The position numbers and the translations under genes are program-made. DNA of 63,203 bases, the filler included, from Candidatus Fermentibacterota bacterium (lineage in GTDB: Bacteria; JAFGKV01): assembly GCA_016928395.1 (NCBI GenBank). It is 6 parts of 6 records of this genome, joined end to end, with 100 filler letters (N's around TTAATTAATTAA, not from the genome) between each part and the next. Parts side by side here need not be neighbours in the genome. Positions count along the whole stretch, not along the records: positions 19,993 to 41,299 come from JAFGKV010000115.1; 5 more parts are not named here. One strand, given 5' to 3'. Under the pieces are notes generated by a model that was not told the origin of the DNA, did no database searches, and worked only from the letters and a program-made list of their open reading frames with translations. Below are positions 11,657 to 38,863 of this stretch, piece by piece (position 1 is the stretch's first letter; each line of letters starts with the position of its first letter).

Positions 11657-11756
11657 NNNNNNNNNNNNNNNNNNNNNNNNNNNNNNNNNNNNNNNNNNNN
11701 TTAATTAATTAANNNNNNNNNNNNNNNNNNNNNNNNNNNNNNNNNNNNNNNNNNNN
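11657..11756. other. Artificial contig linker
   Basis: N44-TTAATTAATTAA-N44 (stops in all six frames). Confidence 0.98.
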
Positions 11757-18244: not shown

Positions 18245-19405
18245 TCAGGCTTCTGTGGAGAACAAGGCTTCGGGGCGAATCACCGCCTCTGCCAAGGGAA
18301 CCGCCTCCACGCGTTCGGATAGTGCATACCGACGCGATCCAGGGTACACGACGGCAATTCGTTCCAGTTGCAGATCCGCCAAGGCGACGCGCATCGACGA
18401 CGTCAGCCGCGGTGCGTCCACTCGCTTGCACTCGATACCGTAGTGCCGCCCGTGCATAACCAGCAATAGATCCAGCTCGGCACCTTGATGCGTCGCCCAG
18501 AAGTGCGCGCTGTCGGGCTCGATGGCCCGCAGGATCTCCTCGATCACGTATCCCTCCCATGAGGCTCCGCACTTCGGGTGCCGGAGCAGATCCCCCTCGG
18601 TGCTGACGCCAAGGAGGTAGTGTAGCAGCCCCGAATCGCGGAAGTACACTTTGGGAGACTTGACCTGCCGCTTTCGCAGGTTGGTGTGCCACGCCGGTAA
18701 CGAACGCACCATGAACAGGTCGCAGAGCAGATCGAGGTAGCGGCGTGCGGTGGTCTCCCCAATACCAAGTGAACGAGCAGGCTCGGCTGCGTTCCAGATC
18801 TGCCCGTGATAGTGCGCAACCATACTCCAGAAGCGGAACATGGTTGTGGCCGAGGCGGCAAAGCCCAGTTGTGGAACGTCACGTTCGAGGAAGGTCTGGA
18901 CGAACTCCCGCCGCCAGCGGAAGGAGCTCTCATCGTCTCTGGCAAGGAACGACAGGGGGAAGCCTCCTCGAAGCCAATGGCGTGAATGGGCGGTCAGGCC
19001 GGTCTCCTCCAGAGTGAGGCCACCCATGGAGACCCGCTCGACTCTACCAGCCAAGGACTCCGATGACTGACGAAGCAGGCCGGGGGAAGCGCTACCCAGG
19101 AGTACGAAGCGCGCGGGAAGGGGTGTGCGGTCCGCCAAGACGCGAAGTACCGGAAACAAGTCTGGCCGTCGCTGAATCTCGTCAATGACGACAACTCCAC
19201 GAAGGTCTTCGAGAGCAGACATCGGCTCATCAAGGCGGGCCAGATCGCGAGGGTCCTCCAAGTCAAAGTACTCCGGCGCCCCCGCGGGCACGATTTGCCG
19301 CGCCAGGGTCGTCTTGCCGCATTGGCGAGGCCCGAGCAGCGCAACCACCCGGTTACGTTGCAGCGCTCGCTTGACGCGTTGGAGCAGATCGGTTCGAGGA
19401 AGCAT
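18245..19405 (-). CDS. AAA_14 ATPase with wHTH and DUF4143 PD-(D/E)XK-like domain
   Basis: GPRQCGKTTL, VIDEIQ, LLGSAS, SESLAGR, RGGFP, KSPKVYFRDSGL, ELDLL...IECK. Confidence 0.93.
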   Translation of the reverse strand: MLPRTDLLQRVKRALQRNRVVALLGPRQCGKTTLARQIVPAGAPEYFDLEDPRDLARLDEPMSALEDLRGVVVIDEIQRRPDLFPVLRVLADRTPLPARFVLLGSASPGLLRQSSESLAGRVERVSMGGLTLEETGLTAHSRHWLRGGFPLSFLARDDESSFRWRREFVQTFLERDVPQLGFAASATTMFRFWSMVAHYHGQIWNAAEPARSLGIGETTARRYLDLLCDLFMVRSLPAWHTNLRKRQVKSPKVYFRDSGLLHYLLGVSTEGDLLRHPKCGASWEGYVIEEILRAIEPDSAHFWATHQGAELDLLLVMHGRHYGIECKRVDAPRLTSSMRVALADLQLERIAVVYPGSRRYALSERVEAVPLAEAVIRPEALFSTEA

Positions 19406-19411
19406 GCAGTC

Positions 19412-19454
19412 ATGCTACCATGAAATTCCCCCATGTCAAGGTGGATTTTCATGG
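19412..19454 (-). promoter_or_regulatory. Putative leaderless promoter with inverted repeat upstream of AAA-DUF4143 gene
   Basis: Minus strand TTGACA-N16-TAGCAT-N6-ATG; 12-bp imperfect inverted repeat CCATGAAATTCC/GGATTTTCATGG brackets the -35 box. Confidence 0.55.
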
Positions 19455-19892
19455 CACGATACCTGCGAGGCAGGTGCGTGCACGGTTCGAGGTCACTGTC
19501 CTTCCGGATTGATCCTTGGTGGTCGTGTCTTGGCGCCGGCGCCATCGTGAGTGGTGTCAGAGCGACGTCTGGCAAGCTCACCGAGTCTGGAAAGAGACCA
19601 TCGGCTCATGACCCGCCCCTCAGACTTCACCGATCTATCCAGCCTCCCCAGACTGGCCTCAGAGGCAGTGTTCCTTCCAGACCTCTTCACCCCTTCAGTT
19701 CTTCACCAGGGCGTGAAGTCTCAGGATGCTTCAACGGGTCCGGAGGTCTTATCTGGAAAGCTAATCGCTCGGAAACTTGACATTTTACCTACGTCCCGTG
19801 CGCCCGCACCACGTATCGTCCGGGCTGGCCCGGGGCCCCCACTAAGCTGTAACTTCACTCCACGCGGCACCCATCACCCTCATCCCCCGCAT

Positions 19893-19992
19893 NNNNNNNN
19901 NNNNNNNNNNNNNNNNNNNNNNNNNNNNNNNNNNNNTTAATTAATTAANNNNNNNNNNNNNNNNNNNNNNNNNNNNNNNNNNNNNNNNNNNN
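19893..19992. other. Artificial contig linker
   Basis: N44-TTAATTAATTAA-N44. Confidence 0.98.
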
Positions 19993-20003
19993 CCGGCTGT
20001 CTT

Positions 20004-20292
20004 CCAGATTCTGACTACTGGATTCTGGATACTGCCCTGCGTCTCCTCACTCCTCACTTGGAAGAGACCAAAGCGAACCCGTCCATCCATCCATCGTTCC
20101 ACGCATCCGTCCATCTCGATATTCTACTTGTGGAATATTCCATGGCTGGAATATCGCATTGCTCCAGACATCCCCATCGTGCATCATTACAGATCCCGGG
20201 CTGAAATGCCCGGTGCTCGTCGACACCAATGGCGAACCCGATAGCGATAGCGATGGGAGAGCATGAGGGAGGGCAGAGGCGCCCTCCCCTAC
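20004..20292. repeat. Mosaic of short tandem repeats and a GTAG-type REP hairpin
   Basis: Heptamers CCAGATT/CTGACTA/CTGGATT/CTGGATA, octamers CCATCCAT/CCATCGTT/CCACGCAT, CGATAG hexamers, GGGAGGGC-N6-GCCCTCCC-CTAC hairpin. Confidence 0.6.
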
Positions 20293-20354
20293 GAATCGAA
20301 CCACGGGAGACGGCTGGGAGCCACCCAACCCTGAACCCTTGCGCCTCGAACCGA

Positions 20355-21668
20355 CTACGGCGCCGGGATGACGTCCTGGAGGGCTGAGGCCCACATCAGA
20401 AGGCGCTCGTCGGCGCCGAAGGGGGCCACCAGTTGCAGGCCCAGAGGCAGGCCGCGGGGCCCGCGGCCTGCGGGGAGGCTCAAGGCGGGCATACCCCCAT
20501 GGGTCCACGGCAGATTCATGATGGGGTTGCCGGTGGAGGACAACCCCTCTGGCGCCTCGCCCTGGGCCGAAGGCGAGATCCAGAGGTCAACCCCATGCCG
20601 AACCATGGCCTCCTCCATCTCCTCTCGCAGCGTTCGCATACCGGCTCTGGCCTCGGCCAGCTCTGCGGCGGAGACCGTCTGGCCTTCGAGGATCAAATCT
20701 CGTGTGGCCGGGCCATACAGCGAGCCATGGGAAGCGAACCATTCCCGGTGTACATGGGCGAACTCCGCGGCGACCATGCGCCGGTGACGGCGGTTCACCT
20801 TGTCGATAGTCGGAAGCAGGGGCGCCTCCTCAATGGCGCACCCGGCACCGCGGAGGCGTGTCACACACTCCCGGAACCCGGCCAGGCCTTCGGGATGTGC
20901 CTGGGCCAGGTAGGGCCCCGCAGGGATTCCGAGAACCGGCGGCGAGGTAGAAGGCGCCTCAGCCCGCCAGTCCGGTATGGCGGCTGCCGCGACATGGGCC
21001 ATCCCCTCCACATCCTGGGTGAAGAAACCCACCGTGTCCGCCGACGCGGAGAAGGAAACTATGCCGGTGGTACTGACGCGGCCAAGGCTGGGCTTGAACC
21101 CGACTACTCCGCAGTAGGCGGCGGGGCGTATGATGGAGCCGATGGTCTGGGTTCCCACTGCGACATGACACAGCCCCGCGGCAACCGCGGCCGCGGAGCC
21201 GCTGCTGGATCCGCCGGGAGTGTGGGACGGGTCATGGGGATTGCGGGTTGGACCGGGCTGGAAGAAGGCGAACTCCGTGGTGATGGTCTTGCCGAGCACG
21301 AATGCGCCGGCATCGCGGAGGCAACGAACGACGGCGGCCTCTTCGCCCTTGAAGAGCTCATGCGGGAGCCTCGAACCGGCCCGAGTCGGAAGGCCTTCCA
21401 CGTGGAAGATGTCCTTCACGCCCACCATGACGCCGAAGAGGGGCGGCCGGGTGGTGGGGTCGGGGGACGTCTCGCGCAGACGACGGGCTTCTTCGCGCAA
21501 TCGTTCCCTCCGATTCGGCTCGGGAAGGAAGGCGTGGATGCGGCGGTCGACCTTCTCGATCAGGTTGCACGCCGCCTCGATGTGGGCGACAAGGTCACTA
21601 GCGTCGCTTCGCAGGGCAACCACGTCGGACGCCAGGAGCGCAGGGTTCAGGAGAGGGTATTCAGCCAT
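20355..21668 (-). CDS. Amidase signature family protein
   Basis: GVKD, TPGGSSSGSAAAVAAG, GTQTIGSIIRPAAYCGVVGFKPS (Ser-cisSer-Lys triad). Confidence 0.93.
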   Translation of the reverse strand: MAEYPLLNPALLASDVVALRSDASDLVAHIEAACNLIEKVDRRIHAFLPEPNRRERLREEARRLRETSPDPTTRPPLFGVMVGVKDIFHVEGLPTRAGSRLPHELFKGEEAAVVRCLRDAGAFVLGKTITTEFAFFQPGPTRNPHDPSHTPGGSSSGSAAAVAAGLCHVAVGTQTIGSIIRPAAYCGVVGFKPSLGRVSTTGIVSFSASADTVGFFTQDVEGMAHVAAAAIPDWRAEAPSTSPPVLGIPAGPYLAQAHPEGLAGFRECVTRLRGAGCAIEEAPLLPTIDKVNRRHRRMVAAEFAHVHREWFASHGSLYGPATRDLILEGQTVSAAELAEARAGMRTLREEMEEAMVRHGVDLWISPSAQGEAPEGLSSTGNPIMNLPWTHGGMPALSLPAGRGPRGLPLGLQLVAPFGADERLLMWASALQDVIPAP

Positions 21669-21864
21669 GGTCACTCCGCACGGGCGATGGAGCGTTCATG
21701 TCGCCTCCTCACCCTCTCCCTCTCCTGTGAGGAGAGGGGATGCTGGAACTCCGCCGGCTTCAGGACTTGTGGACAACTGAGGCCCTCCGAGGCACTTGGC
21801 GTTGCTGACAATTGCCCGAACGACACAGAATCACGACCCCGGGCATATCTGCGTCGGTAGCCTG

Positions 21865-21963
21865 CTGTTGGGTTACGATGCGCTCACCCAACCTACATCT
21901 ACTTCTGTTGGGTTACGCTGCACTGACCCAACCTACATCTACTGATGACTGAGAACTGAGAAC
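21865..21963 (-). repeat. Tandem pair of GTAG-family REP hairpins plus heptamer run
   Basis: Two 40-bp-period units TGTTGGGTTACG(a/c)TGC...ACCCAACCTACATCTACT, followed by ACTGATG ACTGAGA ACTGAGA. Confidence 0.75.
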
Positions 21964-21981
21964 TCCTCGCACCGCGAGGCC

Positions 21982-23172
21982 TCACACCACCCCCTGGGCC
22001 CGCAGGTCGTCGATCCGGGCGTGGGGCATGCCCAGGAGTGACGACAAGACCGAGTCCGTGTGTTCGCCGACATCCGGTGCCCGGGTCAACGGGGGTTCGA
22101 TCGGCACCGAGGAGAGCTTGATGGGATTGCCCGGCACCAGAACCGTTCCCGCCACGGGATCTTCCACGTCTACCAGCATGTTTCTCGCCTTGAGCTGCCG
22201 GTTCTCCACCACGCGGTCGATGGTGTTGACCGGGCCGCAGGGCACTCCCGCCGCCTCCAGAATCACAAGCCACTCAGCCACGGTCTTGACCGCAAACACG
22301 GGTTCTAGGAGGGCGATCAGATCCTCCAGCGCGTCGGTGCGGGAGGCATTGGTAGCGAAGCGCGTCTCCGCGGCCCAATCGGGCCGGCCGATGGCCTGGC
22401 AGAGCCTAACCCAGATGCCATCATTGCCGGCTCCCACCACGAAATAGCCATCCAGGGCCTTGAAGGCCTGAAATGGCGTGATGGTCGGATGCCTGTTGCC
22501 CAGAGGCCCCGGCGGCACGCCGTCGACCTGGAACCGCGCGACGGCATTCTCCAGAATGGCCAACTGGCAATCCAGCATCGCCACGTCAACCTTCTGGCCG
22601 CGGCCCGTCTTCTCCCGCTCGTACAAAGCTCCCATGATGCCGACTGCGGTAAACAGCGAGGCGGTGATATCGCCGGTGGACATGCCGACCCGGGTCGGCG
22701 GCATGTCGGGCCAGCCGGTGATGCTCATGATGCCGCCCATGGCCTGTACCAGGATGTCGTAGGCGGGCCTCTTGGAGTCGGGGCCCGTGTGCCCAAACCC
22801 TGAGATAGCGGCATAGATGAGCCGGCTGTTGTGCTCCCGCAGCATCTCATACCCCAGGCCCAAACGTTCCATGACGCCGGGGCTGTAGTTCTCAACCAGC
22901 ACATCGGACTGCATGACCAGATCCAGGAGAATCCCGCGGCCCCGCTCGGTCTTCAGGTTGAGAGTCACGCTCCGTTTGCCGCGGTTGATGGCGAAGAAGT
23001 AGAGGCTCGTCCCATTCTTGAATGGCCCGAAGGCGCGGGAGTCGTCGCCGCGCCCCGGGATCTCCACCTTAATCACGTCGGCCCCGAGATCACTCAAGAC
23101 CATGGTACAGAAGGGACCCGCCAGCACCCGGGTAAGGTCTACCACGCGGATTCCCTCAAGCGGTCTGGCCAT
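21982..23172 (-). CDS. Family III CoA-transferase (CaiB/BaiF/Frc)
   Basis: PLEGIRVVDLTRVLAGPFCT..L.DLGADVIKVE, NRGKRSV, ISGFG..GP, catalytic Asp in GDITAS. Confidence 0.95.
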   Translation of the reverse strand: MARPLEGIRVVDLTRVLAGPFCTMVLSDLGADVIKVEIPGRGDDSRAFGPFKNGTSLYFFAINRGKRSVTLNLKTERGRGILLDLVMQSDVLVENYSPGVMERLGLGYEMLREHNSRLIYAAISGFGHTGPDSKRPAYDILVQAMGGIMSITGWPDMPPTRVGMSTGDITASLFTAVGIMGALYEREKTGRGQKVDVAMLDCQLAILENAVARFQVDGVPPGPLGNRHPTITPFQAFKALDGYFVVGAGNDGIWVRLCQAIGRPDWAAETRFATNASRTDALEDLIALLEPVFAVKTVAEWLVILEAAGVPCGPVNTIDRVVENRQLKARNMLVDVEDPVAGTVLVPGNPIKLSSVPIEPPLTRAPDVGEHTDSVLSSLLGMPHARIDDLRAQGVV

Positions 23173-25519
23173 GTCGCGCCTCCTTTTCCATCACCGCCAA
23201 GGCCACCTTTTCGGCCGTCAGGGGCATGGAGGTCAATCGCACACCCAAGGCATCCTCCAGCGCATTGGCCACCATGGGCGCGGCGGGAAGCATGGGGTGT
23301 TCCCCGATACCCCGGGCGCCGAACGGCCCGTCGGGCTGGGGCACCTCCACGATAATGGGCACTATCTCATCGGGAATATCCATGGCGGTGGGGATCTTAT
23401 AGTCTGTGAAGTTGGGGTTTGCCAGTCTGCCATGCTCATCGAACCGCATGTCTTCGTAGAGCACGGTGGCCAGGCCCTGCACCAGGCCGCCCTCTATCTG
23501 GGCCTTTACCATGCGGGGGTTGATGGCCTTTCCGGCGTCCAAGGCCTCAACCACCTTGCGTACCCGCATTTTGCCGGTCTGCCGGTCGACTTCCAGGGTC
23601 AATGCGGCGGCACCCACCGTGTAGTGCACATTGGGATGCCCGCCCTGGCCGGTCTCAGGGTCGGAAACCGCCGAGGCGTACTCAGGCATGAACATGCCGC
23701 GTCCCACGATGGGACCGCCCCGGTAGGTGCCGTCTTCGGTCTGGATACCCGAGATCACGAAAGAGCGCAAGGCAAGGCAGAAATCAGGCCTCGTACGGCA
23801 TTTCAGGGTCTCGTCTTCCAGGTAGAGGCTCTCCTGGGGGATGTGCAGGGCGCGCTCCGCGACGGCGAAAATCTGTTCCCGGGCATCCAGCGCGGCACGG
23901 CGCACGGCATTGCCAGTGCTCCATGTGATATGGGATGCCACGGTCTGCCATTCGTAGGGGTTGCGGTCGGTGTCGGGGGTCTCTACTCGAATCTTGTGAG
24001 GCGGTACGGTGAGCACCTCGGCCGCGATCTGGGCCATGGCGGTGAGCACTCCCTGCCCGATCTCCATGGCTGATATCAGGATATTGATGCTGCCATCCTC
24101 ATTGAACTTCAGAAAGGCGGTGGATGAAGCATTGGGCGGCATGGCAGGGGCTTTCCACAGCAGAGAAAACCCCTTGCCCACCAAGGCGGTGGAGCTGGAA
24201 GGGGGCTCCTTCTCGCCCCATTTGATCTCCTCTGCCACGCGATCGATGGCCTCAAGAAGACCGTTGGGGTTCATCGAGGCGCCATAGGCGAGAACGTCGC
24301 CCTCCCGGATGGCATTGTGCCTTCGGAAGGCGACCGGATCCATACCGATGGCGTGGGAGGCCTTGTCCACCATGCTCTCCAGCCCGAAGAGGAACTCGGA
24401 ATAACCGAATCCACGGTACGGGCCGCCGGGCGGCAGATTGGTATAGATGCAGAGCGAGTCGATGACGACATGGGGAATCCTGTACGGGCCCGTGGCCGAG
24501 AGCCCCACGGCGTTCACCACGTTGGCGCCATACTCCACGTAGGCGCCGGCATCCCAGTACAGCGTATGGGACAGGGCCGTGATGGCGCCGTCTCTCTTTA
24601 CCCCCATGCGCAGCTCCGACCGAAGCCCCAGGCGCTGGTACGTATTGTAGAACTCCTGCTCCCGCGACCAGCATAGCTTCACCGGCTTGCCGCGCAACTT
24701 CGTCGCCAAGGTCGCGGCCAGGATCTCCATGGTGACGCCGGCTTTGCCGCCGAATCCTCCGCCCACGTAGGGCGTGATCACGCGCACGTCATGGTGGGTT
24801 AGCCCCAGCGGCGCCAGCGTTTCTGCGAACAGATTCCGCTGGGTATGGGGGGATTGGGATGCCGTCCACACGGTGAGCCGGCCTGACTGGTCGAAGAGGG
24901 CCACGGCCCCATGGGGTTCAATGGCGCAGTGGGCATACCGAGGCACGGTGAACACCCCGTCCACCACGACATCGGCATCGGCGAAGCCCTGGGCCGCATC
25001 TCCCCTTCGGATCTTACGCCAATGGGCGATGTTCGTACCTGCCTTGGGGAAGAACCACGGCACATGCTCGTAGTTGCCCAGCTCGGGGTGAACCCGCACC
25101 CCGTCATCCTTGAGCGCCTCCATCTGGTCGAAGACCGCGGGCAGCGGCTCGTAGTCGACCCATACCGCGGCAGCAGCCGCCTGGGCGGCGGCAGGGCTCC
25201 GAGCCACCACCACAGCCACCTGTTCACCCACGAAGCGCACCCGGTCGGCGGCCAACACAAAGCGGTCTTTCATGTAGAGCCCGAAGTGAAGACCGGCGAA
25301 GTCCTTACCCGTGAATACCGCCACTACCCCCGGCATCCCTTGGGCGTGGGAGGTATCGATGCCGCGAATGAGCGCATGGGCGTGGGGGCTTTCCACGACC
25401 CAGGCATAGTGCACATTCGGGCCAAACTCCACATCATCCACGAACTGGGCGGCTCCTGAGACCTTCTCCCGTCCCTCCAAGCGCTCAACGGGCGCGCCAA
25501 TGAACCGATAGTCACTCAT
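23156..25519 (-). CDS. Xanthine dehydrogenase-family molybdopterin-binding large subunit
   Basis: SQSPH, VGGGFGGK, PYRGFG, EIGQG, TVASH, QIEGGLVQG, GARGIGE. Confidence 0.93.
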   Translation of the reverse strand: MSDYRFIGAPVERLEGREKVSGAAQFVDDVEFGPNVHYAWVVESPHAHALIRGIDTSHAQGMPGVVAVFTGKDFAGLHFGLYMKDRFVLAADRVRFVGEQVAVVVARSPAAAQAAAAAVWVDYEPLPAVFDQMEALKDDGVRVHPELGNYEHVPWFFPKAGTNIAHWRKIRRGDAAQGFADADVVVDGVFTVPRYAHCAIEPHGAVALFDQSGRLTVWTASQSPHTQRNLFAETLAPLGLTHHDVRVITPYVGGGFGGKAGVTMEILAATLATKLRGKPVKLCWSREQEFYNTYQRLGLRSELRMGVKRDGAITALSHTLYWDAGAYVEYGANVVNAVGLSATGPYRIPHVVIDSLCIYTNLPPGGPYRGFGYSEFLFGLESMVDKASHAIGMDPVAFRRHNAIREGDVLAYGASMNPNGLLEAIDRVAEEIKWGEKEPPSSSTALVGKGFSLLWKAPAMPPNASSTAFLKFNEDGSINILISAMEIGQGVLTAMAQIAAEVLTVPPHKIRVETPDTDRNPYEWQTVASHITWSTGNAVRRAALDAREQIFAVAERALHIPQESLYLEDETLKCRTRPDFCLALRSFVISGIQTEDGTYRGGPIVGRGMFMPEYASAVSDPETGQGGHPNVHYTVGAAALTLEVDRQTGKMRVRKVVEALDAGKAINPRMVKAQIEGGLVQGLATVLYEDMRFDEHGRLANPNFTDYKIPTAMDIPDEIVPIIVEVPQPDGPFGARGIGEHPMLPAAPMVANALEDALGVRLTSMPLTAEKVALAVMEKEARHGQTA

Positions 25520-25976
25520 GGCATCGCCTCCCTAGACTCTGCACCGCCTCGATGATGGGCCTGTATCCCGTGCAGCGGCAGAGGTTCCCTGCCAACGCTT
25601 CCTTGATCTGTCCCTCAGTGGGATGGGGCGTATCGCGCAGAAGCTCGGTGGCGGTCACGATCATCCCCGGGGCGCAGAAACCGCATTGAAACGAATCGTT
25701 GGCGAGAAACGCCTCCTGGAGCGCCGTCAGACCGTCTGCGGCGATGCCTTCCAGGGTCGTGATCTCATGGCCGTCAACTTCCACGGCCAGAATTAGGCAA
25801 CTGCGTACACTACGACCATCCAGCAAGACGGTGCAGGTGCCGCAGTCTCCGCGATTGCACCCAGCCTTGGGGCTCTTGATTCCCAGGCGATCCCGCACTA
25901 CGTCCAGCAGGATCTCCCACGGCTCTACCGCGATGCTGCGCCGCTCGCCATTCAGCATGAATGTGATGGTGGTCAT
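25512..25976 (-). CDS. Xanthine dehydrogenase-family 2x[2Fe-2S] small subunit
   Basis: GCNRGDCGTCTV...SC; QCGFCAPG; GNLCRCTGY. Confidence 0.95.
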   Translation of the reverse strand: MTTITFMLNGERRSIAVEPWEILLDVVRDRLGIKSPKAGCNRGDCGTCTVLLDGRSVRSCLILAVEVDGHEITTLEGIAADGLTALQEAFLANDSFQCGFCAPGMIVTATELLRDTPHPTEGQIKEALAGNLCRCTGYRPIIEAVQSLGRRCHE

Positions 25977-25977
25977 T

Positions 25978-26868
25978 TCAGCCTCCCAGAAGTGCCATGG
26001 CGGGCGGTTCGCCGCGCAGCCTGCGGGCGGCCTCCAGAAGCCCCCGCTCCAGCATGAGCGCGGCCATGTGCCGGCGATAGGCTTGGCTGGCACGAATATC
26101 CGAGATGGGTGCAATCTCCCCGTCGACGGCGGCCTTGGCTCGAGTCAGGGTTTCCTCGTCGAGCTCTCGACCGGCGAGCAATTCCTCGATAGTATGTGCC
26201 CTGGCCGGGATCGGGCCCAGCGCGCAGAAGGCCACGCGGTAGGTCTTGTCTTCCAGTGCCATCACCGCGACTCCGGCCTGGGCGAGGTCCTCGCCTCGAT
26301 AGCGCCCGAGTTTCACATAGCAGCCCGCATGTCGTCTCTGCGGACGGGGTACCGTGACTGAGACCACCAACTCGTCGGGACGGCGCGCCGTCTGTTTGGG
26401 GCCGGTGAACCACTGGTGAATCGAGACGTTTCTCTCGCCGCGAGCAGAGGCCAGGTGCACGTGGGCGTCGTGCACCAGCACCGCGGGGCCGCAATCCAGC
26501 GACGGTACCGCGGAGCATAGGTTTCCCGCCAGAGTCGCGCGGTTCCTGATCCCGGTCGAGGCCACGGTGGCGGCGCTCTCGGCGATCAGGGGAAACCCGT
26601 CCCGAACCTCGGGGGAGCATAGGATGTCAGAGAAGGTCACCCCCGCAGCTATTTCCAGCCGGTCATCACTCACCGCGATGCGGCGAAAACCGGCCAGATC
26701 CTTGACGTCGATCACGCACTCGGGAACGAGGCGGCCTTCCTTCAGGTGTACCACCACATCGGTTCCCCCGGCCATGATCGTGGCCCTCTCGCCGTGCAAT
26801 GCCAACAGGGAAAGGACTTCCACCACGGTGGAAGGCCGGGCGTAGGAGAACTGGTGCACAATTGCCAT
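25978..26868 (-). CDS. Xanthine dehydrogenase-family FAD-binding medium subunit
   Basis: MAGGTDV, IRNRATLAGNL, PISDIRAS..YR; AGGAG RBS. Confidence 0.93.
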   Translation of the reverse strand: MAIVHQFSYARPSTVVEVLSLLALHGERATIMAGGTDVVVHLKEGRLVPECVIDVKDLAGFRRIAVSDDRLEIAAGVTFSDILCSPEVRDGFPLIAESAATVASTGIRNRATLAGNLCSAVPSLDCGPAVLVHDAHVHLASARGERNVSIHQWFTGPKQTARRPDELVVSVTVPRPQRRHAGCYVKLGRYRGEDLAQAGVAVMALEDKTYRVAFCALGPIPARAHTIEELLAGRELDEETLTRAKAAVDGEIAPISDIRASQAYRRHMAALMLERGLLEAARRLRGEPPAMALLGG

Positions 26869-26893
26869 AGAATACACTCCTGTGCGGTGGCGG

Positions 26894-27715
26894 TCACTCC
26901 TCTGGAGGCGCCAAAGCGACGATACGGCACATGGAGGATTCCAGCTCCATGCCGCGCAGCGGGAACAGGCCGATCCACACCCGGCGGTTGCTCAACCGGT
27001 CGATTTCTCCCCCCAGGTTCTCGGCGTGAACCAGCCGCTTCGGGAAAAGCTTCAGGTGCATTACCTGGTAGAATTCGTCGGGGGGAAACATCTCGTCCCA
27101 CGGTTTTCCATACCGCTGCAGGAGCCGTGCCTCGGCCTCGTGAAACCGTTTCGGATGCCAGTCGCGAATGATGGTGTTCATGGGATGATCGGCGCTGCCA
27201 CAGTCGACGCCAATCCACTTGAACTTCATGTCCAGCGCCCAGGTGTGGAAGTCAGGACTGGGGCCGGGATGCTTCACGAAGTAGCGGATCTCGTCGGATT
27301 CCGGCCTGTCCCACGAGTAGCGGTGATAGCCGGTATTGATGATCAGGATGTCGCCCTTTTTGATATCGGCACGACCGCTGAGCAGCTCAGGGGAGTAGAG
27401 GTCGTAATCGCCGACGTGAGACGAGATGTCCACCACGACGCCCGGGCCGATCCATTCCTCCAGAGGCACCTGTCCGATGGTGCGCCCGCTGGCGTGGAAG
27501 TGAATCTCTCCGTCTATGTGAGTGCCCACGTGATTGCTGGTGGTGATGATCTGGCCGTTGGCGCCCTGCCCCATGTGGGCCCCGGCGAGACGCTTGAAGT
27601 ACTGGATGCCCAGCGGCATGTAGCTGGGCCACGGGGGCGTATGCACGCTCAGCGGTTGGGTCAAATCGTAGACGGCGACCCGGTCCATGAAGGCAAGGAA
27701 CTCATCGATACGCAT
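26894..27715 (-). CDS. Cyclase-family (kynurenine formamidase-like) metal hydrolase
   Basis: HxGTHxD motif NHVGTHIDG; IGVDCGSAD; HAENL. Confidence 0.9.
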   Translation of the reverse strand: MRIDEFLAFMDRVAVYDLTQPLSVHTPPWPSYMPLGIQYFKRLAGAHMGQGANGQIITTSNHVGTHIDGEIHFHASGRTIGQVPLEEWIGPGVVVDISSHVGDYDLYSPELLSGRADIKKGDILIINTGYHRYSWDRPESDEIRYFVKHPGPSPDFHTWALDMKFKWIGVDCGSADHPMNTIIRDWHPKRFHEAEARLLQRYGKPWDEMFPPDEFYQVMHLKLFPKRLVHAENLGGEIDRLSNRRVWIGLFPLRGMELESSMCRIVALAPPEE

Positions 27716-27717
27716 TG

Positions 27718-29130
27718 TCAACTCTCCTTCAATGTCGGCTCAAGAGCAAAGGCCAAGGCCCGCGCGGCGGCGAGGAAGGGTTCTATGGGCGCACGCACGA
27801 CTCCCGCGCCCACCTGGCCGATGCCGGGCTCCCGGTGGGCGACACCGGTGTCGATGAAGGGCTGTAGCCCGGTGCGTGCCACCTTGACGAGGTCAATGCC
27901 CACCGGCGTGCCCCGGAAGTCAAGCCCGGGAATCCGGTAGGCGGTATGCTCGGCGGCGGTAATCTCGTACATGGCCAAGGTGTAGCCTACGGCGTCTCTT
28001 GCCGCACCGCCGACGAACTGCACGATGGCCGGGGCCGCGGCAATGGCGAAGCCGCCCAGGCCGGCGGTCTCCGTGATGGCGCTGTCGCCGATATCGGGGT
28101 TGGCATCGGCCTTGGAGAAGCCGGGAAAGAACAGGGCATCCGGCACGGGGGCGGGCGCGGTAAACCACGCGGAACCCGTGCCCGAGGCCTGCACGCCGAA
28201 CTCGGTGCCGTTGCGGGCCATGGCCACCACCACACTGCTGGAAGGGATCCCGCGAGCGGAATCCAGCGACACCTTGCAGGAGGCCATGGAGAGGTTCAGG
28301 AAGAAGTGATCGTTGCCGTCGATGAAGCGCAGGACCTCTGCCGCGGCATCTCGGGCCGCGGTTTCGACAATGGCGGGCGCAAGAATCCGCAGGAACAGGG
28401 AGGTGGCCGCGCGATTACGGTTGTGCACCTCGTCGCCCATGTGCAGGGCCTGGGCGATGATCGCGCGGAGGTCTATGCCTCCCAAAGCCTTCACGGCCTC
28501 GGCGAGCACGGGAAACAGGAGATCCGCCATCCAGTCTAGCCGTTGGATGACCTCCGGGCTGTAGGCGCCGTACCGGAGAACCTTGCCCAGCCCTTCATTC
28601 ATGGTGCAGAAGGCCTGGGCGCCGACCTCATCGTTTCGCACGACGAACACAGGCATGGAGGCTGAGATGATGCCGGCCATGGGGCCTACCGAGGCATGGT
28701 CATGGCATGGGGAGAACCGGATCGCGCCGGAGGCGGCCAGGTCGCGAGCCTCCTCAACCGTACCGGCCCGTCGCTCGTAGAGGAGCGCGCCCATGACGGC
28801 GCCCTGCATGGGGCCGCACATCCGGGGCCAGGCGATGGGAGGGCCGGCGTGAAGGATGGTATCCGGGGTCATCCCCGGGATAAGGTCGAGGGCTCTTCCC
28901 AGGGTTACCAGCCGGGGTCGAGCCGATAGGATACGGGATACGGCTTCCTGGTTGGCGGCGGTGATACGCTCGGCATGGCGCGCGAAGGCGGCCATGACAT
29001 TCGGCGGCAGTGCAGGGGGGCGCCAGTCCACCTGGATCGCCTCGGCGCCAGCGGCTCTGATGCCGTCACAGAACCAGGGAATGCCGACATTCACCACTGA
29101 CAGCGGCCGGTCAAACAGCTCGGTGCTCAT
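27718..29130 (-). CDS. yahG: DUF1116 protein, YahG/YlbE(AllG)-like
   Basis: ILHAGPP, VGPMAG, NEGLGKVLRYGA, MGDEVHNRN, MARNG, PDIGDSAITE, GQVGAG; YahG-type N-terminal VVNVG...VDWRPP segment. Confidence 0.85.
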   Translation of the reverse strand: MSTELFDRPLSVVNVGIPWFCDGIRAAGAEAIQVDWRPPALPPNVMAAFARHAERITAANQEAVSRILSARPRLVTLGRALDLIPGMTPDTILHAGPPIAWPRMCGPMQGAVMGALLYERRAGTVEEARDLAASGAIRFSPCHDHASVGPMAGIISASMPVFVVRNDEVGAQAFCTMNEGLGKVLRYGAYSPEVIQRLDWMADLLFPVLAEAVKALGGIDLRAIIAQALHMGDEVHNRNRAATSLFLRILAPAIVETAARDAAAEVLRFIDGNDHFFLNLSMASCKVSLDSARGIPSSSVVVAMARNGTEFGVQASGTGSAWFTAPAPVPDALFFPGFSKADANPDIGDSAITETAGLGGFAIAAAPAIVQFVGGAARDAVGYTLAMYEITAAEHTAYRIPGLDFRGTPVGIDLVKVARTGLQPFIDTGVAHREPGIGQVGAGVVRAPIEPFLAAARALAFALEPTLKES

Positions 29131-30680
29131 GCGTCCCTCCCTGCGGCGATGGTCGCGGCCAGGTACGACGCCGCGGCGTTGGATGGAGCGACCACAGCGC
29201 CGGCCTCACGCAGTGCATCCTGTACGGAAGGCAGGCGCTGGGGATCGGCGGCGGTGCCTGTGACCGAGACGACGATGGGCAAAGTCCTCCCCCCTTCCGA
29301 TGCAATGCGTTGGGCATCCTGAATGGCGGGCGCCAGCTCGCCGGCGGGGTCAGGGTGGGCTCCGTACCCCAGCACTACGTCCATGAGAATCACGGCGACT
29401 CCTGGGTCGCGGGCCTCCTGCACCAATCGGCGGCATCGCAGCGAGTAGTCGATCATGGGATGGGGCCTACCCACGGTGAATTCGTCGGCGCCCAAGTCCA
29501 CCAGGGAGTGCATGCCGCCCCGGGGAGCACTTGCACGTTCTGCAGATGCGGAACGCCGCAGATCGCCGGCGAAAGATCCCACGAGAGGCATCATAATGGA
29601 GGCGGCTTCGCCTCGGAGGGTACCGCCGCTGAAGAGGCCCCGCACGAAGCGCTGGGATGGCGCCAGGGAGGGCCGGATGGAGGCGGCGATGGCCTTCATC
29701 TCTGATCTGCGCGCGGCCAGGATCTGCGGTATGGCGCTCACGTCGTCGCCCTTGGCCAACGTGGCCGCGGCGATACCGGCCTCCTCCAACGTGGTCGCGG
29801 AGAATGCCCACGGGCCGGGGCCGTCATGGCTGACCCCGAGGAATGCGGTCACCACGGGTTTGTCACTCCGGCGTGCCGCCCGCGAGATCAGGGGCACCAC
29901 CTCGGTATCGGGCGCTTTGGCGATAAGCACGATCACCGCCGTGGCCGCGTCATCAGTCAAGAGACGCAGGGCCTCCAGGAACATGATACCTCCCACCTCA
30001 CGGAGGGTGTCGCGCCCGCCGGTGCCCAGAGCCTGGGAGATCCCGGCGCCCTGATTGGACACGATGGTGCTGACCTCCTGGAGCCCCGTGCCGGAGGCTG
30101 CCACGATGCCCACGGACCCGCGCCGGACGACATTGGCGAACCCCAGAGGCGCCCCATTGATGATGGCACTACCGCAGTCTGGCCCCATGAGCAGGAGCCC
30201 GCGGTTTCTGGCCAGGTGTTTGAGTTCCACTTCGCGCTCCAGGGGCACATTGTCCGAGAAGATCATGACGTGCAGGCCAAGCCGCAGGGCGTCAAGAGCC
30301 TCATCCGCCGCGAACCGGCCCGCCACGGAGATCAACGCCAAGGAGGCCGAAGGCAATGCGGCAACGCCGCCATGGAGTGTGCGCGGCGCGTCGGGCGGGA
30401 GGCTGGGGCCGCCTCCTCGCAGTGCGTCATCCACCGCGCCCAATGCTGCCGCCGCGGCATCGCCGTTGTCGGCAATGACCGCCACCAGGAGGTCTTCATC
30501 CTTCGCGCCGGCGAACGAGGGAAGCAGCATGCCCGCGGAGTGGAGAATGGCCTTGTTGGTGGCGGTAGCCATTACCAGAGCGACATCCTGCACACCGGGC
30601 AGCTTCCGCAGTTGCACGGCTGCGGCCATGAGGGCCACCGAATCGAAGTAGGAACCCGTGAGAACAGTACCGCTGGTCAT
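29127..30680 (-). CDS. yahF: FdrA/YahF(AllF)-like acyl-CoA synthetase-fold protein
   Basis: YFDSVALM, FSDNV, LLMGPDCG, ASGTGLQE, GTGGRD, GLFSGGTL, GRPHPMID, DVVLGYG. Confidence 0.9.
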   Translation of the reverse strand: MTSGTVLTGSYFDSVALMAAAVQLRKLPGVQDVALVMATATNKAILHSAGMLLPSFAGAKDEDLLVAVIADNGDAAAAALGAVDDALRGGGPSLPPDAPRTLHGGVAALPSASLALISVAGRFAADEALDALRLGLHVMIFSDNVPLEREVELKHLARNRGLLLMGPDCGSAIINGAPLGFANVVRRGSVGIVAASGTGLQEVSTIVSNQGAGISQALGTGGRDTLREVGGIMFLEALRLLTDDAATAVIVLIAKAPDTEVVPLISRAARRSDKPVVTAFLGVSHDGPGPWAFSATTLEEAGIAAATLAKGDDVSAIPQILAARRSEMKAIAASIRPSLAPSQRFVRGLFSGGTLRGEAASIMMPLVGSFAGDLRRSASAERASAPRGGMHSLVDLGADEFTVGRPHPMIDYSLRCRRLVQEARDPGVAVILMDVVLGYGAHPDPAGELAPAIQDAQRIASEGGRTLPIVVSVTGTAADPQRLPSVQDALREAGAVVAPSNAAASYLAATIAAGRDA

Positions 30681-31543
30681 GTGGTCAGTCCCTGATGGAG
30701 AGAGAGGAAGAGCCCCGTCATGAGATCGGCCCCCGAGGTAGAGCCCATGCCCATGAGCCGGTGACCGTGCGTCTCTAGTGCCGTCTCATCGCTGTGCGCC
30801 AGTGCCTCTACATAGTCTTTCACCGGCGCCGCGAAGCACCCCTCGGCTGCTAGGGTAAGTGAAGTACGTGAGAGAAGGGTTGTCCCGCGGGTATGCAGAG
30901 TCACGGTGTCCAGAGAAAGGGCAAACCGTCTGTTGCCCATTGTGGCCAGCATGTGCCGTGCGGCGAGATGACCCACCAGAAAGTCGTCACCGCTGGGCGT
31001 GAGGCCGATACCGGTGCCGCAGAGCCGGCGAACTCCCTCGGCTTCCCGGCCGCCGAACAGGAGGCGAACCCCCTGGGTGACGGCGTCAACATATCGGCTC
31101 ACGAAGCGGCTCGCTGGGGCAGTCGGCTCCACCGAGAAGAGCCACGAGAGGCTCTTTTGCGGCGCGTGACGACGGAGGAAATCCATCTGGGTAGCCATGT
31201 GTCTTTGCAGGTCGGCCCGTGTCGTCTCCACGTAAGGCCGCGATGACCAGCGGGACTCCAAGAGGGGGATACGAACGTCATCTATGGACACGGCATCCTG
31301 CGTGATCACGAGGGAGCGTGGGCATTCACACCAGAGCCCTCGGGTGACGATGTTCACCGGGCCAGGGCCCACGCGTTCGTCTACTACGGAGACCATCCGA
31401 TCCTCGGCGGCGAAGTTCGTCACGCGGGGAAATCGAGAGTGTACCCGGAAAGAGCCCGGCCTGAGGCGATCGCCGCAGGAGAGCACCTGTGGCATGCCAG
31501 CCCAGGGGGGTATGGGCGCCGGGGGGGTCTGGGCAACCTGCAT
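30677..31543 (-). CDS. yahE: DUF2877 protein, YahE/YlbF(AllH)-like
   Basis: VHSRF...N, G.GIGLTPSGDDFLVG, TTLLS, GSTSGADLMTG. Confidence 0.85.
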   Translation of the reverse strand: MQVAQTPPAPIPPWAGMPQVLSCGDRLRPGSFRVHSRFPRVTNFAAEDRMVSVVDERVGPGPVNIVTRGLWCECPRSLVITQDAVSIDDVRIPLLESRWSSRPYVETTRADLQRHMATQMDFLRRHAPQKSLSWLFSVEPTAPASRFVSRYVDAVTQGVRLLFGGREAEGVRRLCGTGIGLTPSGDDFLVGHLAARHMLATMGNRRFALSLDTVTLHTRGTTLLSRTSLTLAAEGCFAAPVKDYVEALAHSDETALETHGHRLMGMGSTSGADLMTGLFLSLHQGLTT

Positions 31544-31690
31544 GAAGGACCTGCCGGGTATGGGTACGAGAACATCGACGAGAGAGGGATGATGGTCGGA
31601 TGGCGCGCCATGTCAAGCCGCACGGGCCCGTACGCCGCGGGAGTGTCTCATGGCGAGAAGGGAGGTGAAGCGGTGGTGGGACGACGAACT

Positions 31691-31723
31691 GAAACGGGGC
31701 GACGGGCAGATCCCGTCGCCCCG
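31691..31723 (-). terminator. Intrinsic terminator after Omp28-like gene
   Basis: 12-bp stem CGGGGCGACGGG/CCCGTCGCCCCG with short TTT tail on the minus strand. Confidence 0.65.
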
Positions 31724-31740
31724 ACATCTCTGACGGAAGT

Positions 31741-33057
31741 CTACCGAGTGACTACCACTTTCACCGCGGATTCGCCGCCGGAGGCGCTCAGCCGGGCGAT
31801 GTAGAGCCCGGGCCCAACACGATGGTTTGCACCATCAGCCAGGTCCCACACGGCAGCATGGAAGCCTGCTTCCGCGGTAGTGCGCAGCGTCCGCACATGG
31901 CGGCCGCTGACATCGTAGATCGCCAACGAGGCTGGGGCATCCTCAGGCAAGGAATAGCGGAACGTGACGTCGCCGGCGGCGGGGCACGGTTGGGCGGGCT
32001 CCAGGCGTAATGCGGTGGGAGCTCCCCACGCCCGTGGGACCGACACACGTACCGGTGCGTGGAACCGTTCAATGCCGGAGAGTGACACATCGGAGAGGGT
32101 GTAGAGGTACGTCGTCCCTGCATCGATGTCTCCATCGACATACTCGTAGGCCTGGGGGACGGCGGTGGTGCCGGCGCCGGGCACCATTCCAGGGGTGAGT
32201 ACCTCCCTGCGACCATCAACGGTACGGTAGATGCGGAAACCAGCATTGTCCGTCTCGGATGCAGTGGTCCAGGAGAGGAGTACGCCGTCGCGGGTAGTAT
32301 GGGCGGCGAATCCAACCAGTTCCACCGGAGTCACCTGGGCCAAGTTGCCGCCTTGGAGAATCTCCTTGGTAGTATCGTCCTGCAGGAAGGCAACTATGGT
32401 ACAGGCCCGGTCACGCCACCCCGCGGGGATCTGGAAGCTCTGGACATCACTCACCATCCCGCCGGAGGGGACAGTGATTCCGACCCCGGCCGCCGAGGGG
32501 AAGACATGCAGAGCAGTGAAGTACAGGTGATTAAAGCCCTGCCAGTTGTACAGGGTATCATCGCCGGTGGCCACGTAACGGAGTGTGGCAGTGATGTCGT
32601 CTCGCTCCGGCTCGCTGTAGATGTCAGCCCGAACCGTTCCCTGCCCGGTTGCACCGTCATAGGAGAGCAAGGTCAGGTCCATGAAGACGGGGCTGGGGAT
32701 ACCTTGGCGCTGATTGTAGAAGGGGGTGTAGTCGACCGGGATTGTGTCGCCTCCCAGTACTCTGATCAGACCGTCCAACATCACCGTCGGATACCCGGTG
32801 ACCGTGTAGTAGTTCTTGCGGTCAACACAGCCGGGAACCTGGAACGCATCGCTGACGTGGTAGGCCACTACCGCGAGACGTTCCCCCACCTGTTGCTCCA
32901 GATTGTACAGGCCTTCCATGGCACTGGGACACCACCCGCACCATGTTCCGGTGAACTCCTCGGCAACCACGGTACGCAACGCCGCGGTGGCCGGGATTGG
33001 CAGCAGCACCACCAGCGCGAGCAGAGGCGCGAGTTTCGAAGGATAGGCTCGTGTCAC
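31741..33057 (-). CDS. Omp28-related thioredoxin-fold secreted protein with FlgD-Ig/T9SS-like tail
   Basis: Signal peptide; EEFTGTWCGWCP, GYPTVMLDG, IVAFLQD...EILQ; PVELVGF module; IYDVSGRHVRTL...GLYIARL tail. Confidence 0.85.
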   Translation of the reverse strand: MTRAYPSKLAPLLALVVLLPIPATAALRTVVAEEFTGTWCGWCPSAMEGLYNLEQQVGERLAVVAYHVSDAFQVPGCVDRKNYYTVTGYPTVMLDGLIRVLGGDTIPVDYTPFYNQRQGIPSPVFMDLTLLSYDGATGQGTVRADIYSEPERDDITATLRYVATGDDTLYNWQGFNHLYFTALHVFPSAAGVGITVPSGGMVSDVQSFQIPAGWRDRACTIVAFLQDDTTKEILQGGNLAQVTPVELVGFAAHTTRDGVLLSWTTASETDNAGFRIYRTVDGRREVLTPGMVPGAGTTAVPQAYEYVDGDIDAGTTYLYTLSDVSLSGIERFHAPVRVSVPRAWGAPTALRLEPAQPCPAAGDVTFRYSLPEDAPASLAIYDVSGRHVRTLRTTAEAGFHAAVWDLADGANHRVGPGLYIARLSASGGESAVKVVVTR

Positions 33058-33331
33058 AGGTGTTCCTCCTTCCGGATCACAAGGGCCGATTGCACAACGG
33101 GGCTTCACGTAACAGACCCATGCCAAAGGTGTCAAACATATCTTAACCGTGGGGGTAGAAACAAATCGCTGGGGTGAGAACGGATGGTGCTTCGCAGTCG
33201 ACAGGCGAACGCCACTGCCGGTGGATTACGACACTGCTGGAGCAGCCGGCAGTGGAGTGCGGGGCAAGGCGGGCACAGGAACGGGTGACAGACTGGCCCC
33301 CGAAAAATGGATTCTCTGGGCGATGAAGTCC

Positions 33332-38751: not shown

Positions 38752-38863
38752 GAAGCCCCGCTGGCGAATGTCGAGAGAGAAGGACCTTGACATCAGGGCG
38801 ACGTGACGGATTGTTTTGCGATGTAGTACTATTAAGTGTTCCTCCAGGAGTATTCCAGTGATA

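Follow-up and report, generated by a model that had tools for sequence, protein, structure and literature searches.

The window analysed here, a stretch of 63,203 nucleotides from the genome of a Candidatus Fermentibacterota bacterium (GCA_016928395.1), carries nine co-directional minus-strand genes between positions 20355 and 31543. They encode a three-gene carbamoyltransferase-like trio, a cyclase-family hydrolase, a three-subunit molybdenum (Mo) hydroxylase, a family III coenzyme A (CoA) transferase and an amidase. This nine-gene set is a real, widely conserved catabolic operon. With slightly better than even confidence, we read it as an oxygen-independent, phosphorolytic and ATP-yielding oxidative pyrimidine pathway, in which uracil or thymine would pass through barbiturate and ureidomalonate to carbamoyl phosphate and malonamate, the latter being converted to malonate and then to malonyl-CoA. 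Every step of this route is deduced from family membership, gene neighbourhood and analogy.

In the proposed pathway, the Mo hydroxylase, with its flavin adenine dinucleotide (FAD), 2Fe-2S and Mo subunits, would hydroxylate uracil, and probably thymine, at C6 to give barbiturate or 5-methylbarbiturate. The cyclase would then open the ring to yield ureidomalonate (3-oxo-3-ureidopropanoate), as barbiturase would in the Actinomycetota. The trio, which resembles YahEFG and AllFGH of E. coli, would phosphorolyse this N-acylurea to carbamoyl phosphate and malonamate; since ureidomalonate is oxalurate with one additional CH2, the same cleavage would be expected to give malonamate. A carbamate kinase encoded elsewhere would obtain ATP from the carbamoyl phosphate, the malonamidase-E2-like amidase would convert malonamate to malonate and ammonia, and the CoA-transferase would produce malonyl-CoA for decarboxylation to acetyl-CoA, in some relatives presumably by a Na+-pumping decarboxylase. 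The first-pass annotation of this DNA had suggested the same order of chemistry (hydroxylation, cyclase-catalysed ring opening, phosphorolytic cleavage of a ureido acid, deamidation and CoA activation), and the comparative evidence given below fits it. Its worked example, from oxamate to oxalate to oxalyl-CoA, is disfavoured, and the series ureidomalonate, malonamate, malonate and malonyl-CoA fits better, because barbiturase takes the place of the cyclase in relatives, the amidase is malonamidase-like, and decarboxylase and uracil-permease-like genes occur as neighbours.

Oxidative pyrimidine breakdown is regarded as a rare aerobic curiosity. In the classical pathway of Rhodococcus and a few other bacteria, as set out in the available text of PMC3758960, uracil is converted to barbiturate, barbiturase produces ureidomalonate, and ureidomalonase releases urea and malonate; according to the literature found, only barbiturase has a named gene (PMC3758960). 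Our proposal shares with that pathway its first two steps and malonate as the carbon product, and a true barbiturase is found in the Actinomycetota relatives of the cluster. The window differs in that its ring-opener belongs to the cyclase family and not to the AtzD/barbiturase family, the ureido group would be released as carbamoyl phosphate (hence ATP) and not as urea, and the carriers of the cluster are mostly uncultured lineages of anaerobe type. The reductive uric acid pathway of E. coli (XdhD, YgfK, SsnA, HyuA, YgeW, YqeA) is also comparable, being an anaerobic nucleobase breakdown in which a homologue of xanthine dehydrogenase acts together with ring-opening amidohydrolases, a carbamoyltransferase and a carbamate kinase, as described in the accessible part of a 2025 preprint (bioRxiv 10.1101/2025.05.19.654654). 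There, however, the carbamoyltransferase YgeW is the product of a single gene and the first step is reductive and acts on a purine; only the Mo-enzyme family is found both there and in the window, and the terms 'cyclase' and 'CoA-transferase' do not appear in the accessible text (bioRxiv 10.1101/2025.05.19.654654).

A conserved operon in many phyla

A listing of open reading frames (ORFs) combined with family scans delimits the nine genes (Table 1). The AllH/FdrA, FdrA/AllG and AllG/cyclase junctions each overlap by 4 nt, the cyclase and FAD-subunit genes are spaced by approximately 16 nt, the FAD and FeS genes abut, and the FeS/Mo and Mo/CoA-transferase junctions overlap by 8 nt and 17 nt, respectively. 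The amidase gene follows the CoA-transferase gene after 307 nt if it starts with GTG and after 313 nt if it starts with ATG. The coordinates and Pfam families agree with the first-pass annotation, which had described eight minus-strand genes with overlapping or near-abutting ends and an amidase 313 bp on, and which had recommended a neighbourhood analysis for recurrence of the gene set.

For this analysis, loci were centred on the gene for the AllG-like DUF1116 protein, which has at least 195 relatives in species-representative genomes. The best 80 of these 195 relatives and the best 80 of 207 from metagenome contigs were used, and 23 query proteins were mapped onto their loci by tblastn (E <= 1e-8, at least 45% of the query). 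Removal of 11 duplicates with identical DUF1116 DNA from the 160 loci left 149 non-redundant ones, in which the core was found across many phyla. A ring-opener (the cyclase or an AtzD-type protein) stands beside the DUF1116 gene in 78 of the 149, accompanied in 48 loci by the Mo subunit; five loci hold the Mo subunit without a ring-opener, and 36, many of them on short contigs, hold the trio only. Where at least 9 kb is available on both sides (33 loci), a ring-opener is present in 26 and a ring-opener together with the Mo subunit in 21. Since the arrangement recurs over many phyla, it is far from a chance one.

The clusters fall into three layouts. Type A, with the order AllH-FdrA-AllG-cyclase-FAD-FeS-Mo, is hosted by Elusimicrobiota, Fibrobacterota, Effluviviaceae, Gemmatimonadota, Kiritimatiellota, Verrucomicrobiota, Caldisericota and Bacteroidales; it is often preceded by genes for a 230-250-aa protein, a thiolase and a DUF35 protein, and is sometimes followed by an NCS2 permease gene. 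Type B, found in Actinomycetota, begins with an AtzD/TrzD-family gene and continues with AllH-FdrA-AllG-FAD-FeS-Mo, without a cyclase; it too is accompanied by the 230-250-aa protein, thiolase and DUF35 protein, and by a permease. In type C, from Anaerolineae, the same parts are reordered, the cyclase often being separated from the Mo enzyme by genes for a CN-hydrolase, a CoA-transferase and a permease, and some of these loci have a carboxyltransferase, a biotin carrier and a Na+-decarboxylase beta subunit upstream. The fullest operon observed, in a Clostridiales metagenome-assembled genome (MAG; L009:7292-18424), encodes AllH, FdrA, AllG, the cyclase, carbamate kinase, the FAD, FeS and Mo subunits and a uracil-permease-like protein. 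Four loci are on records with strain names and may stem from cultured organisms, namely L007 (Caldisericum sp. AR60) and L039, L040 and L051 (Nonomuraea strains, which have a different Mo enzyme).

A cyclase-centred sample of 301 genomes from the phylum of locus L020 was also examined. The cyclase subfamily is present in ten of them (70-79% identity, one copy each), and the DUF1116 protein (E <= 1e-80) in 12, namely all ten cyclase carriers, at 61-65% identity, and two further genomes, at 51% and 37%. An overlap of this kind has a chance of about 1 in 10^18, a figure that takes no account of relatedness among the genomes. Of the nine new cyclase genes, six have AllG next to them, four the Mo subunit, two both and one neither; the cyclase locus L169 is cut by a contig end. 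AllG is present elsewhere in the three genomes that lack it next to the cyclase. Four of the five genomes without an adjacent Mo subunit hold a 63-65% identical one elsewhere, and the fifth (G070) only a 43% match, so that nine of the ten cyclase genomes possess a Mo subunit of 63-67% identity, either adjacent or elsewhere.

Enzymes of the proposed route

The window cyclase keeps the H-x-G-T-H-x-D metal motif and belongs to a subfamily whose members are 70-86% identical across phyla, the window protein itself being 73-79% identical to counterparts from other phyla. A family search returned 2,738 clusters at E <= 1e-10. The closest named relative (86%) is from a Candidatus Eisenbacteria MAG, and the relatives at 75-86%, from Eisenbacteria, Cloacimonadota, Elusimicrobiota, Spirochaetota and Ignavibacteria, have generic names only. 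Kynurenine formamidase and isatin hydrolase (PF04199) are of the same fold family and have the same motif; however, the window cyclase reaches only 52 bits with solved formamidases and forms a subfamily of its own, and its score with the arylformamidase model (TIGR03035) is 54.2 against a cut-off of 223.05. Relatives in Chloroflexota, 445-478 aa long, are less identical than the 272-aa forms and yet score higher, as would a doubled or fused domain.

In the Actinomycetota loci, an AtzD/TrzD-family protein replaces the cyclase. The cyclase occurs in 55 of the 149 loci and the AtzD-type protein in 23, and no locus holds both. The AtzD-type protein of L074 matches PDB entry 5hwe, 'Barbiturase', from end to end with 538.5 bits, whereas its matches to cyanuric acid hydrolases do not exceed 311.6 bits. 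At the genome level, four of four cyclase-type genomes are without a match to PF09663 (AtzD/TrzD-family barbiturase) and one barbiturase-type genome is without a cyclase match, absences that rest on MAGs and are thus not proven; PF09663 has no match in the window either. The Mo subunits of the barbiturase clusters are 65-71% identical to that of the window (58-69% within type A), and either ring-opener therefore has the same hydroxylase partners. One orthologous hydroxylase and one orthologous trio, as judged from sequence, appear to work with two unrelated ring-opening hydrolases, and we propose by analogy that the cyclase is a non-homologous stand-in for barbiturase. To our knowledge, enzymes of the barbiturase family act only on barbiturate and cyanuric acid. 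A cyanuric acid or triazine pathway was ruled out because the L074 protein is far closer to barbiturase and the Mo hydroxylase would have no role there. The available text of PMC5366886 likewise assigns only barbiturases and cyanuric acid hydrolases to the AtzD/barbiturase family.

The Mo subunit lies below every NCBIfam equivalog cut-off, the best score being 502.7 against 780 for XdhA (NF043082). Its partners are also below the models for xanthine dehydrogenase (XdhABC/PucCDE), with 187.7 against 310 for the FAD subunit and 163.6 against 217 for the FeS subunit. In the 2Fe-2S protein, family matches begin at approximately residue 44-53 of the long ORF. Among solved structures, 4-hydroxybenzoyl-CoA reductase is closest to the Mo subunit (315.8 bits); identity with that enzyme was ruled out, as all three subunits are far below the family cut-offs. 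The Mo subunit contains the motifs GGGFGGK (followed by Ala), YRGFG and GIGEH, which we take to mean, in a mapping to the bovine enzyme to which we give little weight, that Glu802 is lost and that Arg880 and the catalytic Glu1261 are kept. Xanthine dehydrogenases presumably have Glu after GGGFGGK, at the site where the window protein has Ala.

The trio comprises the complete AllFGH-type family set, FdrA (PF00549), DUF1116 (PF06545) and DUF2877 (PF11392), in three adjacent genes. In E. coli, AllFGH interconverts oxamate plus carbamoyl phosphate and oxalurate plus phosphate, for which all three genes are needed, and the linked carbamate kinase AllK makes ATP from carbamoyl phosphate, according to the available text of PMC11326118. 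In comammox Nitrospira, allFGHK adjoins triuret and biuret genes, another N-acylurea context (available text of PMC12625717). The window trio has the same three families side by side as E. coli AllFGH (FdrA-YlbE-YlbF) and, by analogy, would likewise use phosphate to split an N-acylurea into carbamoyl phosphate and an amide, with carbamate kinase then forming ATP. It differs in gene order (H-F-G against F-G-H), in its identity of only 39-47%, in the absence from the window of allantoin genes (allB, allC, allD, allE) and of a linked kinase, and in a proposed substrate that would be one carbon longer. A further difference is a DW(R/T)PP segment of about 45 residues, which is on the G protein in the window and apparently forms the C-terminus of AllF in E. 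coli.

The order E-F-G and the N-terminal segment of the DUF1116 protein are shared with E. coli YahEFG, DWRPP at residues 35-39 of the window protein corresponding to DWTPP at the matching site in YahG, whereas YlbE is without the N-terminal ~55 residues. The E. coli yah locus differs in having a carbamate-kinase-like YahI and an amidohydrolase, YahJ, neither type being present in the window, and in having no Mo enzyme or cyclase. Sequence identities do not favour either paralogue: the DUF1116 protein has 46.7% identity with YahG and 46.6% with YlbE, the FdrA-like protein 40% with YahF and 39% with FdrA, and the AllH-like protein 39% with YlbF (over 113 aa) and 29% with YahE. In an IQ-TREE mixture-model tree, the group of 34 cluster-linked sequences excludes YahG, YlbE and L153 (SH-aLRT 94, not starred); a position of YahG inside the cyclase-linked group, obtained with FastTree, was not reproduced in this tree and was dropped. 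Thus, the label 'yahEFG-type' of the first-pass annotation is upheld by gene order and the placing of the DW(R/T)PP segment and not by phylogeny, and orthology to AllFGH over YahEFG is likewise not borne out by identity or tree. On these comparisons, the window trio is treated as a putative third clade beside both E. coli paralogues. The same annotation correctly stated that both E. coli loci have a carbamate kinase nearby (yahI and ybcF). A term search of the main text of the AEM 2024 paper finds no yahE, yahF or yahG.

Several further observations concern these proteins. The last ~45 residues of E. coli AllF (fdrA, L168:6681-8348) are similar to the first ~45 of YahG and of the window DUF1116 protein, with E values of 3e-07 and 8e-04, respectively, in a 160-letter search space, and the difference between AllF and the DUF1116 proteins may be only one of where the F/G boundary is placed. 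The phosphohistidine pattern H-[AS]-G has no match in the window FdrA-like protein, in YahF or in AllF. Among named relatives, those nearest to the DUF1116 protein (76%) belong to Candidatus Eisenbacteria MAGs; relatives at 76-84% are on short contigs outside the fetched loci, and no relative above 68% identity was found among metagenome contigs.

The best PDB match of the amidase is malonamidase E2 of Bradyrhizobium (1ock), with 195.9 bits, the next scoring 154.3. In an alignment of the two, the equivalents of Lys62, Ser131, Ser155 and Arg158 are kept, which we take to be the catalytic Lys, cis-Ser and Ser and an Arg, three residues past the nucleophile, that binds the substrate carboxylate; a GS(I/V)IRPAAYCG stretch is also common to both. 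The relationship is nevertheless distant (195.9 bits over 365 residues), and no curated family cut-off exists. The best PDB matches of the CoA-transferase are two dicarboxylate enzymes, YfdE (329.6 bits) and SUGCT (succinate-hydroxymethylglutarate CoA-transferase, 308 bits). The Mo-to-CoA-transferase junction recurs in Bacteroidales locus L006, at 71% identity. An amidase-signature gene is present in only three of the 149 loci, and a non-homologous CN-hydrolase occupies the amidase position in 13, four times next to a CoA-transferase, which suggests that an amide must be hydrolysed and the resulting acid activated. In L021, L022, L024, L032 and L067, an mmdA-like carboxyltransferase, a biotin carrier and a Na+-decarboxylase beta subunit are encoded near the cluster; in Anaerolineae, the decarboxylase genes score 748.7 bits as methylmalonyl-CoA decarboxylase alpha (cut-off 998.8) and 474.8 as Na+-decarboxylase beta (cut-off 190.6). 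These genes would fit the formation of malonyl-CoA from uracil and of methylmalonyl-CoA from thymine.

Carbamate kinase is encoded inside the Clostridiales operon L009, between the cyclase and the FAD gene (TIGR00746, 390.9 bits, cut-off 358.25), in support of carbamoyl phosphate being formed. Elsewhere, a carbamate kinase over the cut-off was found on another contig in four of five genomes with the cluster, against two of 14 control genomes. Three of four permeases score best as uracil permease (L009 390.1, L074 338.7 and L032 241.7 bits), all below the cut-off of 477.

A different set of genes, for a GNAT-fold protein, a thiolase and a DUF35/ChsH2-OB protein, is present in 35 of the 149 loci (for example L004:4973-7368, L074:15255-17724 and L066:7797-10000), the window being without it. 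The thiolase matches NF004720 with 437.7 bits. The 230-250-aa protein has no Pfam match; its fold, predicted from a 32-row alignment, is that of a GNAT (predicted local distance difference test 83.4), and the Foldseek matches of this model are PatZ and Rv0998 (E 4e-07). The set shares a locus with amidase, CN-hydrolase or CoA-transferase genes in only one of the 149, and looks like an alternative means of disposing of the same intermediate.

Weighing the alternatives

A number of observations weigh against a pyrimidine pathway of the form proposed here. The best named match of the CoA-transferase is the oxalate enzyme YfdE, we know of no uracil dehydrogenase sequence with which the Mo subunit could be compared, and carbamate kinase is encoded in only two of the 160 loci. 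The window itself holds no carbamate kinase, permease or decarboxylase gene. The first-pass annotation had already reported no kinase, allantoinase or transporter; however, the cluster contig ends 362 nt past the amidase, and the absence of a carbamate kinase or transporter is consequently uninformative for any reading. The trio occurs without a ring-opener in seven of the 33 long loci (L005, L028, L034, L035, L037, L039 and L106), and the cyclase gene of L170, one of the nine fetched, stands alone. The amidase may be a ureidomalonase, in which case the trio would be redundant. The permease of Caldisericum locus L007 scores 223.5 bits as xanthine permease against 116.3 as uracil permease; an adenine deaminase gene (TIGR01178, 577 bits, over the cut-off) lies upstream of FdrA-AllG in five Anaerolineae loci (L027:4029-5753, L028, L035, L037 and L042), four of which have no cyclase or Mo enzyme nearby; and two PucR/CdaR-like regulator genes lie upstream of the operon in L009. 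These three features hint at a link to purines. Finally, the GNAT/thiolase/DUF35 set, which stands in for the amidase and CoA-transferase genes in 35 of the 149 loci, does not readily fit malonamate chemistry.

The same enzyme logic might serve another N-heterocycle, either a purine or an oxo-pyrimidine different from uracil (a modified base, for instance), whose ureido acid would be neither oxalurate nor ureidomalonate. We consider this unlikely: a Mo subunit that is below all equivalog cut-offs leaves the substrate open, and purine-related neighbours in some loci and the unexplained GNAT/thiolase/DUF35 module would suit it, but the family of the replacing enzyme comprises, in the available account, only barbiturate and cyanuric acid enzymes (PMC5366886), the L074 member is far nearer to the solved barbiturase than to cyanuric acid hydrolases, and the amidase is malonamidase-like. 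The last of these points bears equally on an oxalurate version of the pathway, in which a purine-derived or five-membered ureide would give oxalurate, the trio would be a true oxamate carbamoyltransferase, and the amidase and CoA-transferase would produce oxalate and then oxalyl-CoA. The sole assayed member of the trio family indeed acts on oxalurate (available text of PMC11326118), the xanthine-type permease of L007 and the five adenine deaminase loci agree with a purine origin, and the CoA:oxalate enzyme YfdE is the best match of the CoA-transferase in both NCBIfam (NF008511, 373 bits) and the PDB. Yet the cut-off for YfdE is 522, and succinate-hydroxymethylglutarate CoA-transferase scores nearly as well. 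Allantoinase, allantoate and ureidoglycolate genes are absent from the window, the enzyme that replaces the cyclase is a barbiturase, for a six-membered malonyl ring, (methyl)malonyl-CoA decarboxylase genes adjoin the cluster in relatives, and the DUF1116 protein is no nearer to E. coli AllG than to YahG. Taken together, these points render the oxalurate version quite improbable.

It is more doubtful still that the operon follows the classical hydrolytic route, with the amidase as a ureidomalonase that releases urea and malonate and the trio as an acyl-CoA synthetase or another enzyme acting on malonate or a related acid. FdrA does have succinyl-CoA-synthetase-like CoA-binding and ligase domains, and the amidase cannot discriminate here, since ureidomalonate and malonamate are both malonyl amides that likeness to malonamidase E2 does not separate. 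Most related clusters, however, possess the trio without an amidase-signature gene, carbamate kinase is found inside the L009 operon, and carbamoyl transfer in E. coli needs all three genes, as stated in the available text of PMC11326118. That the genes are mere neighbours without a common pathway is scarcely credible: the 313-nt gap with hairpin repeats before the amidase, and the position of amidase and CoA-transferase as the least conserved members, would permit it, but overlapping start and stop codons join eight of the genes, many phyla share this core, and the cyclase and the DUF1116 subfamily are confined to exactly the same ten of the 301 genomes. The oxidative pyrimidine pathway, with ureidomalonate as the substrate of the trio, is thus the reading that we retain.

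Setting of the operon and implications

The window consists of six contigs in series, and genes on either side of a linker are not neighbours. The contig that bears the cluster spans 19993-41299 (21,307 nt). Beyond the amidase stop, no open frame extends to the contig end, and the operon may continue past the amidase. As the linker at 19893-19992 closes the contig, the mobile-looking genes below 19893 are not neighbours of the cluster. Upstream of the first gene, the promoter-like sequence in Table 1 is one of two consensus matches, against a mean of 2.4 in shuffled sequences, and carries little weight. The tandem units in the gap between the CoA-transferase and amidase genes are 90% alike, with two matches in the window and none in 100 shuffles; a third inverted repeat lies in the same gap, just before the amidase start. 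An Rfam scan of 19000-33500 gave no match at E <= 0.1. Elsewhere on the cluster contig, a 406-aa ORF (38816-40036, plus strand) fuses a response-regulator receiver (PF00072) to a DnaA-type ATPase domain (PF00308). Secreted proteins with type IX secretion system (T9SS) C-terminal sorting or FlgD-Ig domains are encoded at 31741-33135 (minus), 7757-10276 (minus) and 49737-51554 (plus), in keeping with an organism of the FCB group such as Eisenbacteria.

Table 1. Positions, strands and supporting features of the operon genes and of other elements in the window
Feature	Position	Strand	Evidence
AllH/YahE-like subunit (DUF2877)	30677..31543	-	PF11392, 82.5 bits
FdrA/AllF/YahF-like subunit, succinyl-CoA-synthetase-alpha-like	29127..30680	-	PF00549; NF004760, 443.3 bits against cut-off 433
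AllG/YahG-like subunit (DUF1116), N-terminal segment with DWRPP	27718..29130	-	PF06545, 329.5 bits
Cyclase-family metal hydrolase, proposed barbiturate ring-opener	26894..27721	-	PF04199, 117.7 bits; HVGTHIDGEIH motif
FAD subunit of Mo hydroxylase	25978..26877	-	PF00941 and PF03450
2Fe-2S subunit of Mo hydroxylase	25512..25976	-	PF01799 and PF00111; predicted start ATG 25976
Molybdopterin subunit, proposed uracil/thymine dehydrogenase	23156..25519	-	PF02738, PF20256, PF01315
Family III CoA-transferase, proposed malonate CoA-transferase	21982..23172	-	PF02515, 445 bits
Amidase-signature enzyme, proposed malonamidase	20355..21674	-	PF01425, 241 bits; likely start ATG 21668, GGAG 5 nt upstream
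Two tandem 40-nt units	21862..21941	-	each with a 7-8-bp hairpin; in the CoA-transferase/amidase gap
Sigma-70-like promoter match	31589..31616	-	TTGACA, 16 nt, CATCAT; 46 nt upstream of first gene
Terminator-like hairpin, upper operon edge	31695..31723	-	12 pairs, 11 G-C; after the upstream T9SS-tail gene
Artificial linkers	11657-11756, 19893-19992, 41300-41399, 54940-55039, 60296-60395	.	each 44 N + TTAATTAATTAA + 44 N, six-frame-stop

The cluster had been put forward as undescribed, and our literature searches revealed no paper describing it. They also returned no paper linking barbiturate or uracil oxidation to FdrA/DUF1116/DUF2877, to a cyclase or to a Mo enzyme, although subscription journals were largely uncovered and a prior description is possible, and no paper naming a gene for uracil/thymine dehydrogenase. 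In the available text of the 2025 preprint on the reductive breakdown of urate, oxidative pyrimidine degradation figures as background only (bioRxiv 10.1101/2025.05.19.654654).

The cluster offers candidates for the orphan uracil dehydrogenase, together with a clear case of non-homologous enzyme replacement. We judge the chances to be evenly balanced that it represents a widespread, oxygen-independent and ATP-yielding oxidative pyrimidine pathway in mostly uncultured bacteria of at least ten phyla. If this is so, its Mo hydroxylase would provide the first genes for the long-orphan uracil/thymine dehydrogenase, and a cyclase-fold enzyme would have gained barbiturase activity independently of the AtzD/barbiturase fold. 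Furthermore, ureidomalonate would be a second physiological substrate for the FdrA/DUF1116/DUF2877 carbamoyltransferases, which would widen the role of this newly recognised three-gene transcarbamylase class and suggest the kind of compound handled by E. coli YahEFG. Oxidative pyrimidine breakdown would then be common in lineages of anoxic sediments, digesters and groundwater, with energy conserved through carbamoyl phosphate, and this ATP-yielding form would constitute a new variation on a rarely seen route.

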